DNA of 64,000 nt from Octopus vulgaris (Eukaryota): contig OX597830.1 in NCBI GenBank assembly GCA_951406725.2, forward strand, positions 63,364,001-63,428,000, in the 5' to 3' direction. Shown here one piece after another: positions 30,490 to 62,329 of this stretch. The translations under genes were made by a program, and so were the position numbers. Within the stretch, counting starts at the first letter, position 1. Each line of letters starts with the position of its first letter. Under the pieces are notes generated by a model, which saw only the letters and a program-made list of their open reading frames with translations, had not been told where the DNA came from and did no database searches.

Positions 30490-30970
30490 AATGATTTTTA
30501 CCTGCAGAAATTTCTAAGCAACACTTAAAAGAGGACATCTTTATGTCCTTGATCAACCATCTTCAGCAATCTTCAGTCACAGATGAGAAGCCACCAACAG
30601 TTTACTGATATAGCAGTTTGAGATAGATGGTATTCAATTGAAAACCCAGCAATATATCTTTTACAAAAATAAAGAAGCAAAATAGATTGTTTCAAGGAAT
30701 TTAATTATGAAATTACAAAAACAATTGCAGCATGGAAGGTGTTTATAAGCCATTTAAAAACATACAAAATCCCCATAAGATTCACTTCAACATTTAAATT
30801 TAATTTGTGTCAAAATATTTTCATCACTTTGAAACCACGACCTGTTCACTGACAAAACTTCGATGCAGCATGAAGTTTTGTCCCTGAAGATTGCTGAAGA
30901 TGGTTGATCAAGGACATAAATATGTCCTCTTTTAAGTGTTGCTTAGAAATTTCTGCAGGTAAAAATCATT
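30490..30970. repeat. 87-bp near-perfect inverted repeat (30490-30576 / 30884-30970)
   Basis: Arms match at 86/87 positions; spacer ~307 bp contains a hairpin and hammerhead-like element. Confidence 0.92.
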
Positions 30971-32900: not shown

Positions 32901-33159
32901 CACAAGGCTATCACATCTTTGGCTGTAATATTTATGTGGGTACAAAAGATGTTTATATAACTGTCCATCGGATCAAAGAGAAATTTCTGAAAAATTATTA
33001 TTTAAAAAAATAATTTGCTGAGTTGAGTGGGTGCTCCAGCATGGCTGCAGCCAATAGGATAAGACAAGTAGAAGAGTGTCATGAATAGCATTTGAGAATA
33101 ATGCCTACCTCAATGTTACACACAAACCTTTCTAACATTGCTATGGCCTGATATACAAA

Positions 33160-33477
33160 ATTTTTTTTTATTTATGCACCCCTTTCAAGCTTAGCCAGGC
33201 TCATGGGCCTGGTATCTCAGTTTCTATGGCGTACGTGTTCCCCCCAGCTGGACGGGACGCCAGTCCATCACAGCATTACTCAAGAAACAGGAAGAAAGAG
33301 TGAGAGAAAGTTGGTGCGAAAGAGTACAACAGGGGTCGCTACCACCCCTTGCTGGAGCCTTGTGGAGCTTTAGGTGTTTTCGCTCAATAAACACACACAA
33401 CGCCCAGTCTGGGAATTGAAACCGCAATCCTCCGACCGTGAGTCTGCTGCCCTAACCAATGGGTCATTGCGCCTCAA
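33160..33477 (-). mobile_element. Full-length tRNA-derived SINE with 13-bp TSD
   Basis: TSD CCTGATATACAAA at 33147-33159 and 33478-33490; head GAGGCGCAATGACCCATTGGTTAGGGCAGC; A-rich tail; sister copy at 38620. Confidence 0.92.
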
Positions 33478-38373: not shown

Positions 38374-38375
<2 letters not shown>

Positions 38376-38588
38376 GGAGTAAACACATAAATGTGAAACA
38401 AGGTGGAAAAAAGAGTACTCAAATACCAGTGGTAGAGTAATATGCTTTATTTTAAGCAGCAGAAAATTCAACAAAATCTGTTACTCTGAGTTTCTCGTTG
38501 CCGTTCATCAGACAGTTTTTGCTAGCAAAAACTGTCTGATGAACGGCAACGAGAAACTCAGAGTAACAGATTTTGTTGAATTTTCTGC

Positions 38589-38589
<1 letters not shown>
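38374..38589. mobile_element. Non-autonomous Penelope-like fold-back element in (TA)n
   Basis: Contains a perfect 132-bp palindrome (38458-38589) plus an 84-bp unique extension; homologous to 60595-60824; flanked by (TA)n. Confidence 0.8.
38532..38569 (+). ncRNA. Minimal type I hammerhead ribozyme motif (mirror copy on minus strand at 38478-38515)
   Basis: CTGT-CTGATGA-ACG.GCAA.CGA-GAAA-CTC.A.GAG-TA-ACAG: stem I CTGT/ACAG, canonical cores, GUA cleavage triplet; stem II closing pair is A.A in this copy. Confidence 0.7.
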
Positions 38590-38619
<30 letters not shown>

Positions 38620-38927
38620 GGAGGCGCAATGGCCCAGTGGTTATGGCAGCGGACTCGTGGTCAGAGGACCGCAGTTTTAATTCCCAGACCAGGCGTTGTG
38701 TGTGTTTATTGAGCGAAAACACCTAAAGCTCCACAAGGCCCCCCAGGGGGTGGTGGCAACCCCTGTTGTACGCTTTCGCCCCAACTTTCTCTCAATCCTT
38801 CTTCCTGTTTCTTGAGTAATGCTGCAATGGATTGGCATCCCATCCAGATGGGGGGAACACATACGCCACAGAAACCGGGAAAATGGGCCCATGAGCTTGG
38901 CTAGGCTTGAAAAGGGCGCATAAATAA
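38620..38927 (+). mobile_element. Full-length tRNA-derived SINE in (TA)n
   Basis: Co-linear with the reverse complement of 33160-33477. Confidence 0.9.
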
Positions 38928-39949
38928 TATATATATATATATCCCTTCTCAATTCCAGAAAATGTAGTTGTTAATGATCAGTCATTCCCAACTGTTCAGT
39001 TACATAATAAGCATATGAGTTCTCCTCCAGGACCACTCCCGTACTATCATATGTTTTACATTTCATTCTTTGATATTGAATCAAATTTTTAGCTGCCTCT
39101 CTGCTCCTTCTCCTTTATGTGTCTAAATGTGTTTGAGAGTCTCAATGAGCTTTTGATACATCGTTTAGTATTTTAGTAAAGCTCTTTTCTCAAGGAGAAT
39201 TACAGGGATTTTGGTACAGTTTCTGGCAGAATGCATCTTCATCCTATCTATTGCAGATATTGTTTTTATCTCAATGGCTTTTTTCGATGTTATGTCATGT
39301 TAAAGACTCAGCGACATAACATTTGAGTGTTGTACACATTCAAACATTTGAAAATTAGTGAAAACATTTATATACCACACATCACACTGTACTGATCAAG
39401 AAACCAGTCTTTATTGAAGAATGGATGCTTTCTGAGGTTTCCCGATTTTGATATCCAGAGAAGGAAAAAAAATAAAAGAGGTAAGAAGGACAAGAGAAAA
39501 GAAACAAAAAACAGTTCACCTTTGTTGCTAACAACATTTATATACCACCTTTGTCACAATTTATATTTTCTACATCAAAGTTTCAGGTGTTAATTTTTGT
39601 TAATTTATTCTCTTAAATGGCCTAATTAGTTTCTCTTCCCGACCACATAATGCAGCTGTGTTCCTTGTGTATTAATGAGCTCTTGTTTTCTTCACAGGAA
39701 TAATACTAATTGCACACAGCAGGTTTTTAATCGTTTTTAGTTATAATTTGTGGTCAGTTTTATAAGAAACTGGACCTGTAAAAAAATTGAAGTCATCCCA
39801 AAGTTATTCTTACTTAAGTTACATATAAGTTGCTTTTGTAATGCCATTGAGTGAGAACGCTGTAGTTTAAATTTGACATAATGGACAAATTATTAATACA
39901 AATCAGTATATTGTTACTTTTTGATGAAGAGCCAAGAACCTGCTCTATA

Positions 39950-60155: not shown

Positions 60156-60335
60156 AACATATATATATGTATAGACACACACACACACACACACATATGG
60201 TTATGAATCTGTGTTGCAAGATTCCTGATGTGAAACTTTTTGTTGAAACATATTGTTGTTTTGGGATGGTCATTTTTTTTTTCCCAAATGAACACTTGCA
60301 CTGTATAATCATTCTTCACTCATTTAATATTGTTC

Positions 60336-60410
60336 TTCCATCCTTGTGTATGCCCCTGCTCTACTTAGTCCATTGGACTAAGTGGAGCAGGAGCATACAC
60401 GTGGACGGAA
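60336..60410. repeat. 75-bp hairpin (37-bp arms, 5 mismatches, 1-nt centre)
   Basis: TTCCATCCTTGTGTATGCCCCTGCTCTACTTAGTCCA-T-TGGACTAAGTGGAGCAGGAGCATACACGTGGACGGAA. Confidence 0.9.
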
Positions 60411-60559
60411 AGTGTCACTCAAGAAGTCACAGATGTGTGATGAAAGATTTCCTGACAATGGGCCAAGTTAAAATAAGAACAGTAAATATATGTGTGTAGA
60501 ATGAATATATAAGGCACGTTTGTGTTTGGCGAAGAAAAGAAAAAATAATGACCATCCTG

Positions 60560-60594
<35 letters not shown>

Positions 60595-60595
<1 letters not shown>

Positions 60596-60824
60596 TTTAT
60601 TTAAAAGCAGCAGAAAATTCAACAAAACCTGTTACTCTGAGTTTCATGTTCCCGTTTGTCGGACAGTTTTTGCTAGAAAAAACTGTCTGATGAATGGGAA
60701 CGTGAAACTCAGAGTAACAGCTTTTGTTATATTTCTGCTGCTTTTAAATAAAGCATATTACTCTACCCCTGGTATTTGAGTACTCTTTTTCCCACCTTGT
60801 TTCACATTTATGTGTTTACTCCAG
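60595..60824. mobile_element. Second copy of the Penelope-like fold-back element in (TA)n
   Basis: Imperfect palindrome 60595-60753 centred on GCTAG plus extension matching the reverse complement of 38374-38457. Confidence 0.8.
60683..60720 (+). ncRNA. Minimal type I hammerhead ribozyme motif
   Basis: CTGT-CTGATGA-ATG.GGAA.CGT-GAAA-CTC.A.GAG-TA-ACAG; stem II pairs fully (A-U, U-G, G-C). Confidence 0.72.
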
Positions 60825-62329
60825 TATATATATATATATATATATATATATGATATTAGAGGAAAAATCAAAACCCAAAGCAGAACAAGTATCTCGAGTC
60901 ATTTAGAATAATTTAATTAGGGTAAGGTGAATTTGAAGAATGGGAAAGTCCTTGATGTTTCAAGTGTATGTTCTCTGTCAGAAAGGACTGAGAGGGAAAA
61001 AAATGGAGTGAGAACAGAAAAAAAAAAAAAAAGATGGACAAGGAAAAAATGTGTAGGGATTAACGGTTGAACCTGATGAAAATATATATATATATATATA
61101 TATAAACTCAGCCTAACTGTACTCATCATCATCATCATTACTTAACATCCATTATCTATGCTGGCTTGGGTTAGACAGTTTGACAGGGGCTGGCTAACCA
61201 GAGAGCGACACAAGGTTCCCAAATCCGCTGTGTATATTTCATCCATTGCCTGATATAGCATCATTACCTAACCGTCAATACACACACGTGAGAGTGTGTG
61301 TGTGTTATTGTCTCCTTGACTTCATGCAAGCTGTGTCTTTCATTTTCAAAATTCCGTGAAAACATGAATTGTCATGTGAGGAATATACCTGACATGTAAG
61401 TGAGTGAGGGTTTGTGGCAGGCTGTAGTAAATCCACCCCCGCAAATTCCATTCCACCTATGTGAGTATGGAAAATATAAAACATCAAAAATGATAAAAAA
61501 TTATACATCCTGAAAAACATGTACATTACAGTATTATATCCAATAGATTCACTTTAAATCTCTGTCTAACACGTGTTTCTGCTGCATAAATATACTAGGA
61601 TGTGATATTCCATTGCATCCTGTTGGTTTAATTGCATTCTAAGTTCATCTAGGGTATACATATCCCTGTAGCTTTATGCAAGGTGTTACCACTATAGAGT
61701 TTTGAAGCAAACTCTATGTGTGTACACACACACATATATATATACATATATACATACACACGTATATGTATATATGTATATACACACATGTATGTGTATA
61801 ATTATATAAAATGGCTGAGTTATATATGACGTTAAATTAAAATAATTTGTTACAGATGGCCATATGTTTTGCCCCCAAAACAAGCTTTTCAAAGTAATGA
61901 AGTATTTGGTTCAGCTATCAGAATTTATAATTTGCTGACGGAATTGCCAATTTGAAGAAACAAGTGTTCTAAAAATAGATTCAGAAGATAATGGAATTTT
62001 ACATTATCTTGAGTTGAAAGAGGGGAGGAGAGCATCACAGGAAGGGAGATAATAGTAAGAGAGTTGTGGGGCTTTGGAGCCAATCTGGTTTTTATTAATT
62101 CCAAGGACACAGAATTTAATAGTAGGGGAAGGCATTTGTCCCTAAATTTCAACAGATTATATAACTCCCTAATCATTTCAGAACCTCATTAATTAGTTAT
62201 ATTTTCTTTGTTCCCAGTTATAATTTATGTAGGTTCCTTTTGTTGAAAGGATATTTTAAACTCTGATGTTGTTTTGTCTATACCTAAGATTTCTGTGTAT
62301 TGTTTTAATAATTATTTTAACTACCCTGT

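Follow-up and report, generated by a model that had tools for sequence, protein, structure and literature searches.

Short head-to-head Hydra-clade insertions in Octopus vulgaris probably arose by cleavage of a (TA)n run by the element's own endonuclease, after which the two broken ends each primed a separate cDNA. Two such insertions lie in the window (the whole stretch of 64,000 nucleotides analysed here), and both consist of the 3′ end of an autonomous Penelope-like element of the Hydra clade, present twice head to head. Across the family, the outer ends of the insertions are fixed and the junction between the arms is scattered, which reverses the fixed axis and variable short arm described in an earlier, sequence-only reading of this DNA.

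Two head-to-head copies in the window

Sequence comparison identified two copies of one repeat in the window, at 60595–60824 and 38374–38589, in opposite orientation and with long arms that are 92% identical. Each sits between (TA)n runs and carries an inverted arm, the long-arm end is common to both, and the short arms measure 80 nt and 66 nt, respectively; on orientation, (TA)n flanks, inverted arms, the common long-arm end and the short-arm lengths the sequence-only reading was right. With +1 of the element set at the A of GCT|AG, both copies also read TTTTTGCT|AG at the apparent axis (60674|75 and 38523|24), but the claim that they fold back at exactly the same nucleotide fails. The 38.5-kb copy (minus strand), a member of the youngest subfamily, consists of a tail arm (38374–38523) and an identical short arm that stops early at +66, joined in a true CTAG palindrome with both arms reaching −2. 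The junction of the 60595–60824 copy reads GCTAGAAAAAAC, not GCTAGCAAAAAC: its short arm runs to −3/−4, its long arm starts from +4/+5, and the inverted arm shows an extra AA because the element's own upstream bases are TT.

The 60595–60824 locus is an old, ordinary fragment. On its left, a (TA)n target run (60562–60594), the end of which would be the primer of the short-arm cDNA given the fixed +79 end, is followed by an inverted, tail-less arm on the minus strand (60595–60678). This arm extends from +79 back to −4 and comprises 80 nt as far as the apparent axis and a further AGAA, for which upstream element sequence served as template; it contains a minimal type I hammerhead motif (60633–60662, minus strand) with the core CCGACAA (60656–60662), one CpG change away from the subfamily core CCGACGA. 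The head-to-head junction (60672–60682; apparent axis 60674|60675), which belongs to a class that we denote −4/+5, has 1–2 nt of A/T microhomology. Beyond it, the pLTR part of the tail-bearing arm (60679–60753, plus strand) covers +5 to +79 by alignment to the full-length element L159 and includes the long-arm minimal hammerhead motif (60687–60720, plus strand; predicted cut after 60716), for which a motif scan gave CTGATGA at 60687, a 3-bp helix II with a GGAA loop, GAAA, a palindromic helix III and GTA. A 71-nt tail (+80 to +150; 60754–60824, plus strand) completes the copy and is bordered by the right (TA)n target run (60825–60851), the putative primer of the tail-arm cDNA on the tally of tail ends.

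Between the two arms of this copy there are differences at five CpG positions, and a short tract of the long arm (60721–60734, plus strand) resembles an older subfamily and is missing from the short arm. This mosaic tract has 937 genomic matches. None of 30 that we sampled had the long arm's base upstream of the tract, the visible partner arms at these matches were of the same older subfamily type, and gene conversion or a mosaic source is the likely origin. Other repeats in the window include an 80-nt imperfect hairpin of unrelated sequence (60333–60413), 180 nt upstream of the 60595–60824 copy; an inverted pair of a 320-nt SINE-like repeat (33153–33475 and 38621–38942), one copy of which lies immediately after the TA run that flanks the 38.5-kb insertion; and MITE-like 92-nt inverted repeats, 97% complementary and 297 nt apart (30490–30970).

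The repeat is the end of a young coding element

Across the 2.8-Gb genome, a 23-nt word from the tail, at the outermost end of the long arm, gave 7,419 exact matches, compared with 0 for the reversed control, and the element is present in at least 7,419 copies. Sampling by likeness to the long arm made the 5′ start appear fixed, and we used tail-anchored sampling instead, taking the first 100 tail-word matches listed, unselected and all on contig C1. In some of these 100 copies the element continues well beyond the axis in the upstream direction, into a 1.1-kb untranslated region and the end of an ORF. Of the best 40 matches to the RT stretch, 20 were examined as RT-bearing loci, and four of them (L147, L149, L159 and L163) combine a pLTR, the tail and the ORF start. 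Full-length elements comprise a pLTR, the tail, the ORF and a 3′ pLTR; L159 has a 711-amino-acid ORF, a 3,392-nt unit and a 1.1-kb 3′ untranslated region. In these four full-length copies the segment +80 to +150 lies after the 5′ pLTR and before the ORF, and is therefore the Penelope tail. The family is young, as the RT stretch is 98–99% identical in the 39 other top matches among the best 40.

The 711-amino-acid ORF encodes an RT followed by a C-terminal endonuclease, with the motifs DIIDF, YRDD and VVYRA...YTG. Pfam and PDB scans of this ORF returned no match; among 7,995 proteins scored, 932 were homologues at E ≤ 1e-30, mostly unnamed, and one of them has PF01541, which we take to be GIY-YIG. 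Several features are those of EN+ Penelope-like elements: a single ORF with RT and C-terminal GIY-YIG endonuclease, partial tandems forming pLTRs (in the same four of the 20 RT-bearing loci), a hammerhead motif in the pLTR (by motif scan) and an optional tail at one end, which at 71 nt is above the usual 30–40. Others are those of the Hydra clade, namely insertion into (TA)n, the RWK and DKT motifs (residues 37 and 113), and the CxCx5C linker, CxxC and CxH around E and N (residues 562, 667, 672, 685 and 695). The translated ORF core has no cysteine, matching the absence of a core CCHH in that clade. The unit of 3,392 nt, including its 1.1-kb 3′ untranslated region, compares with a clade size 'generally' under 3 kb (PMC8557442, used here and below as excerpts, as are PMC3846280, PMC2377424 and PMC4209133). 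On these motifs and on protein likeness judged by eye, we assign the element to the Hydra clade of C-terminal EN+ Penelope-like elements. The Neptune clade, considered from the zinc-finger linker, was dropped for Hydra on published clade definitions.

Two other kinds of element were set aside. Non-LTR retrozymes, described in the literature excerpts as non-coding head-to-tail tandem units that each have a hammerhead, do not fit arms that lie head to head and are continuous with a coding element. A MITE or foldback DNA transposon would have fixed terminal inverted repeats and a fixed interior; here the outer ends differ by the tail and the junction varies.

Outer ends are fixed and junctions are scattered

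By script, 66 of the 100 copies have an inverted arm that aligns, 3 have a stub, 21 have none and 10 run far upstream. An inverted 5′-truncated copy at the 5′ end, a further trait of EN+ Penelope-like elements, was in this way scored in 69 of the 90 short copies and in 5 of the 10 long ones, the inverted end of the latter lying inside the fetched DNA. By eye, 3 of the 21 copies lacking a scripted arm show inverted fragments. Among the 66 aligned inverted arms, 59 end at +79 (55 of these directly on T), and the 80-nt arm is thus the norm and the 66-nt arm the exception, contrary to the variable short arm of the sequence-only reading. The other arm ends at +150 and carries the 71-nt tail, the end of which reads CCGGTATA in 68 of the 100 copies and mostly a close variant in the remainder. 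Both ends abut (TA)n. The pairing of one tail arm with one tail-less arm was seen at all 31 loci inspected for the −4/+5 class and, as scored, in 17 of 19 exact palindromes; one locus, L073, is a tail-tail insertion.

After both rows of L073 had been dropped and six alignment over-runs corrected by hand, 64 arm pairs yielded 53 distinct junctions, with the exact palindrome in 7. The tail-less arm is the further-reaching one in 28 pairs, compared with 8 for the tail arm (p 0.001); in another 28 the two arms reach to within 3 nt of each other, and in 5 pairs they do not overlap. In genome-wide counts, which cover young subfamilies and exact matches only, 5,174 arms reach +1, 2,820 reach −5 and 2,003 (39%) extend past −9, and 456 lie in an exact palindrome (9% of arms reaching +1, or ~230–290 loci). 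A fixed axis is not a property of this family. The sequence-only reading had named scattered axes, or a majority of copies lacking the inverted arm, as grounds against itself; the axes do scatter, and most short copies have the arm.

Longer arms occur as well. One junction in the sample lies 1.6 kb upstream, L121 and L122 have kilobase arms, and L121:5105–8515 is a 3.4-kb near-perfect palindrome (96%) with its axis within the endonuclease ORF. At L279 and L281 we observed head-to-head arrays with tandem repeats of 3.36 kb making up one arm or both; in arrays of this type the arms within one insertion tend to match in length class, both long or both short.

Three junctions recur. The −4/+5 junction has 240 genomic matches, compared with 5 for controls carrying G or T there, and the 31 loci inspected (30 of the 240 plus the 60595–60824 copy) span three subfamilies; 21 of them have the tail on the trimmed arm and 10 have it on the longer one. 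These counts, and a tail on either side, indicate a separate junction class rather than a point mutation, and its recurrence across subfamilies and polarities indicates that it forms repeatedly rather than being inherited from a palindromic master. Another class is an AATT palindrome in which an arm ends at −5. No single junction is commoner than the exact palindrome, probably because its CTAG, the sole self-complementary 4-mer between −5 and +55, lies 3 nt inside the likely RNA end. Reiterated AGAAT fills the junction at L023.

Arm ends pile up at a defined terminus

A defined terminus near −5 is where the 5′ ends of the arms pile up. Among the first 100 arms that reach +1, 45 end no more than 7 nt further upstream and 45 run on; the other 10, scored at 10–47 nt, comprise 6 that stop and 4 that by eye continue past an indel or mismatch. 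The stop rate is ~7% per base up to −7 compared with 0.3–0.4% per base over the next 40 nt, the latter computed with 8 stops where 6–8 of 55 arms stop. At the base preceding −5, which is C or T in the element, 233 of the 2,820 arms have G and 191 have A; inspection showed true ends in 30 of 30 G matches and 28 of 30 A matches (58 of 60), with the AATT class accounting for 13 of the 30 A matches. The wall at −5 is sharp in three subfamilies, and the oldest has the same end with different bases.

The A at −5 lies within CCATTCT, which we take to fit the initiator consensus YYANWYY. Judged from DNA, −5 is likely to be the transcription start of the element RNA, and Penelope transcription is described as starting inside the upstream pLTR (PMC2377424, excerpts). 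The extra G before −5 is suggestive of a cap signature, although it is mostly explicable by the partner arm and was clearly untemplated in ~3 of 30 cases. At L350/L351 and L356/L357, both arms end at −5 and are followed by an untemplated C, as a copied cap would give. We rejected the hammerhead cut as the terminus, as ends do not pile up at +43 (5 of 152 fall in +41 to +50), and also a splice acceptor at the TAG near +2, as arms keep −5 to −1 and an older subfamily has no AG there.

Two cDNAs as the probable origin of the insertions

We propose that the element endonuclease cuts the (TA)n run and that each end would prime a cDNA, one at +79 and the other at +150; the two fixed ends would then be two internal reverse-transcription start sites. 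At each site, the next bases in the RNA form a TA-like word (CAUAU and UGUA) that could pair with a (TA)n primer, and variant junctions retaining TGTA or TCTA of the template fit such pairing. cDNAs primed on the first pLTR of the transcript would extend to the 5′ end of the RNA at −5 and run off there, and those primed on a later pLTR would give kilobase arms. The cDNA 3′ ends would anneal through 1–9 nt of chance complementarity, with flaps trimmed and gaps filled, making the −4/+5 junction and the AATT palindrome at −5 sister classes of the CTAG palindrome. The hammerhead would be carried along, arm ends showing no pile-up at its cut site. This likely mechanism is drawn by analogy with the anole Poseidon protein. 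As the sequence-only reading held, the structures are not random 5′ inversions. Counting against the mechanism, ~21 of the 100 scripted copies have no inverted arm, and a purely two-cDNA account is opposed by the concordance of paired arms and by the 28 to 8 bias in reach, which fold-back of a +79-primed cDNA also predicts.

Such fold-back, in which one cDNA, mostly +79-primed, reaches the RNA end, snaps back and copies itself as the second arm while +150 priming adds only the tail and closes the gap, is an unlikely general explanation. Besides the longer tail-less arm, it would account for symmetric junctions at self-complementary words and for the likeness of paired arms, which at 33 of the 36 scorable loci are concordant in their subfamily positions and in some loci (L292, L296, L300 and L312) have minor variants in common. 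Fold-back cannot produce the non-overlapping arms of 5 of the 64 pairs, a state that later deletions across the palindrome centre could mimic; zero-spacer palindromes (CTAG and AATT) would leave it almost no loop; the arms at 60595–60824 differ by a tract of another subfamily; and two priming events would still be required. The sequence-only reading had proposed self-primed fold-back from a defined terminus. The terminus, at about −5, is upheld, and fold-back, possible for part of the overlapping pairs, may make a share of copies. The concordance of arms at 33 of 36 loci fits one RNA source as well as arm-to-arm copying, and a junction sequence on its own reads the same for annealing between two cDNAs as for annealing within one.

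An origin as longer or perfect palindromes, with junctions scattered by later central deletions, is improbable. Palindromes are prone to deletion and some arms do carry small internal deletions, but random decay would not be expected to leave a sharp wall in three subfamilies or identical junction classes that recur at 240 and ~230–290 loci, and several junction types are present already among young copies whose arms are identical. Less probable still is self-priming on an antisense transcript, the published proposal of Arkhipova et al. 2013 for palindromes where inverted Penelope copies meet (PMC3846280, excerpts), which leaves unexplained both the one-tail rule and two exact outer ends that match in vitro sense-RNA initiation sites of another PLE. 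A non-autonomous foldback element or MITE spread from a palindromic master copy, as the sequence-only reading had also entertained, is hardly credible: the ~230–290 loci with an exact palindrome (456 arm matches) speak for it, but these are 9% of arms reaching +1 while 39% extend past −9, identical junctions recur in different subfamilies and polarities, the two outer ends do not form an inverted-repeat pair, and the continuity of the element upstream of the axis into the 3′ untranslated region and ORF refutes it for the family.

The proposed two-cDNA mechanism resembles LINE-1 twin priming, in which both target strands prime cDNA and the inner ends are joined by microhomology to give an inversion. 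In twin priming, the second primer acts at internal sites that vary, and there is no duplication of the 3′ end, whereas here both sites are fixed and both arms hold the same 3′ region.

Variation in the hammerhead motif

The hammerhead core starts at +13, with a predicted cut at +42|43. Rfam gave no hammerhead match in the window or the pLTR, and helix I does not form in the minimum-energy fold of the 60595–60824 long arm. Among 196 parsed arms, part of which were picked by patterns allowing only C or T at the core places concerned, the core is CTGATGA in 120 of 122 arms of the youngest subfamily and CCGATGA in 22 of 26 of the middle one. In the subfamily of the 60595–60824 copy it is CCGACGA in 20 of 38 arms and CTGATGA in 2, one of which is the long arm of this copy. 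The sequence-only reading had contrasted an intact long-arm core with a mutated short-arm core. Both sequences, CTGATGA and CCGACAA, are as reported, but given a subfamily with mostly CCGACGA, both arms are likely CpG-decayed from that core, and the long-arm CTGATGA is likely a by-product of two CpG changes.

Older subfamilies with C at core position 4 (CCGACGA and CCGATGA) still spread, and the youngest has the canonical CTGATGA; either the position-4 variant would cleave or cleavage would be dispensable. An unrelated repeat with a hammerhead-like CTGAAGA occurs at L003 (~1660–1800) and beside L041 and L044, in the same TA runs, and is probably another Penelope end.

Relation to known elements and implications

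The anatomy, clade, target, tail and inverted copies described here are already known, as is the idea of self-priming. Hydra-1_Obim of the Hydra clade (Craig et al. 2021, PMC8557442, excerpts) has the same RWK, DKT, CxCx5C, CxxC and CxH motifs, the same (TA)n target and a hammerhead in the pLTR, and long RT stretches are alike by eye. It represents a different family: four of five words of the octopus element are absent from the excerpted supplement text, the hammerhead differs, its unit is 2.5 kb compared with 3.4 kb here, and pLTRs and tandems are present here. The entry printed before Hydra-1_Obim in that supplement has near-identical helix I and III and a CCATT just upstream of helix I. 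An inverted 5′-truncated copy and an optional tail are known for EN+ Penelope elements (PMC8557442, Fig. 2 legend), and that legend together with excerpts on Adineta vaga (PMC3846280) and D. virilis (PMC2377424) describes the same head-to-head copy, one-end tail, junction palindromes and pLTR promoter. Compared with those elements, the tail is 71 nt rather than 30–40, and in the octopus family the thousands of young copies counted yield a junction spectrum and a sharp wall at −5. The hammerheads of metazoan PLEs, of minimal type I (Cervera and De la Pena 2014, PMC4209133, excerpts), have the same tiny palindromic helix III in the pLTR, and hammerhead pairs 100–700 bp apart on opposite strands were already known; the C at core position 4 of older octopus subfamilies is not among the variants in those excerpts.

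The Poseidon protein of Anolis carolinensis cuts and extends both strands in vitro, and two internal start sites downstream of its hammerhead bound the tail, with hammerhead cleavage not needed (Frangieh et al. 2024, PMC11167929). Poseidon belongs to another clade and is reported to initiate without target homology, in contrast to the TA-like word after both sites here, and that paper does not address how inverted junctions form. In the literature searched, which lies outside subscription journals, we found no published two-cDNA junction model beyond PMC8557442, PMC3846280, PMC2377424, PMC11167929 and PMC4209133, and the Penelope excerpts within it gave neither the −5 wall nor the three recurrent junction classes.

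How Penelope-like elements form inverted structures is a named open question (PMC8557442, excerpts). We somewhat favour the reading that young insertions record two (TA)n-primed cDNAs that ran off a capped RNA end at −5 and were joined by microhomology, in which case the junction spectrum would map the transcription start to the base and would replace the published self-priming reading. The same start-site wall could occur in the published Hydra consensus printed before Hydra-1_Obim. As the family is young, has long intact ORFs and yields exact predictions (start sites at +79 and +150, an RNA start at −5 and three recurrent junctions), two-cDNA synthesis and fold-back can be tested against each other directly.
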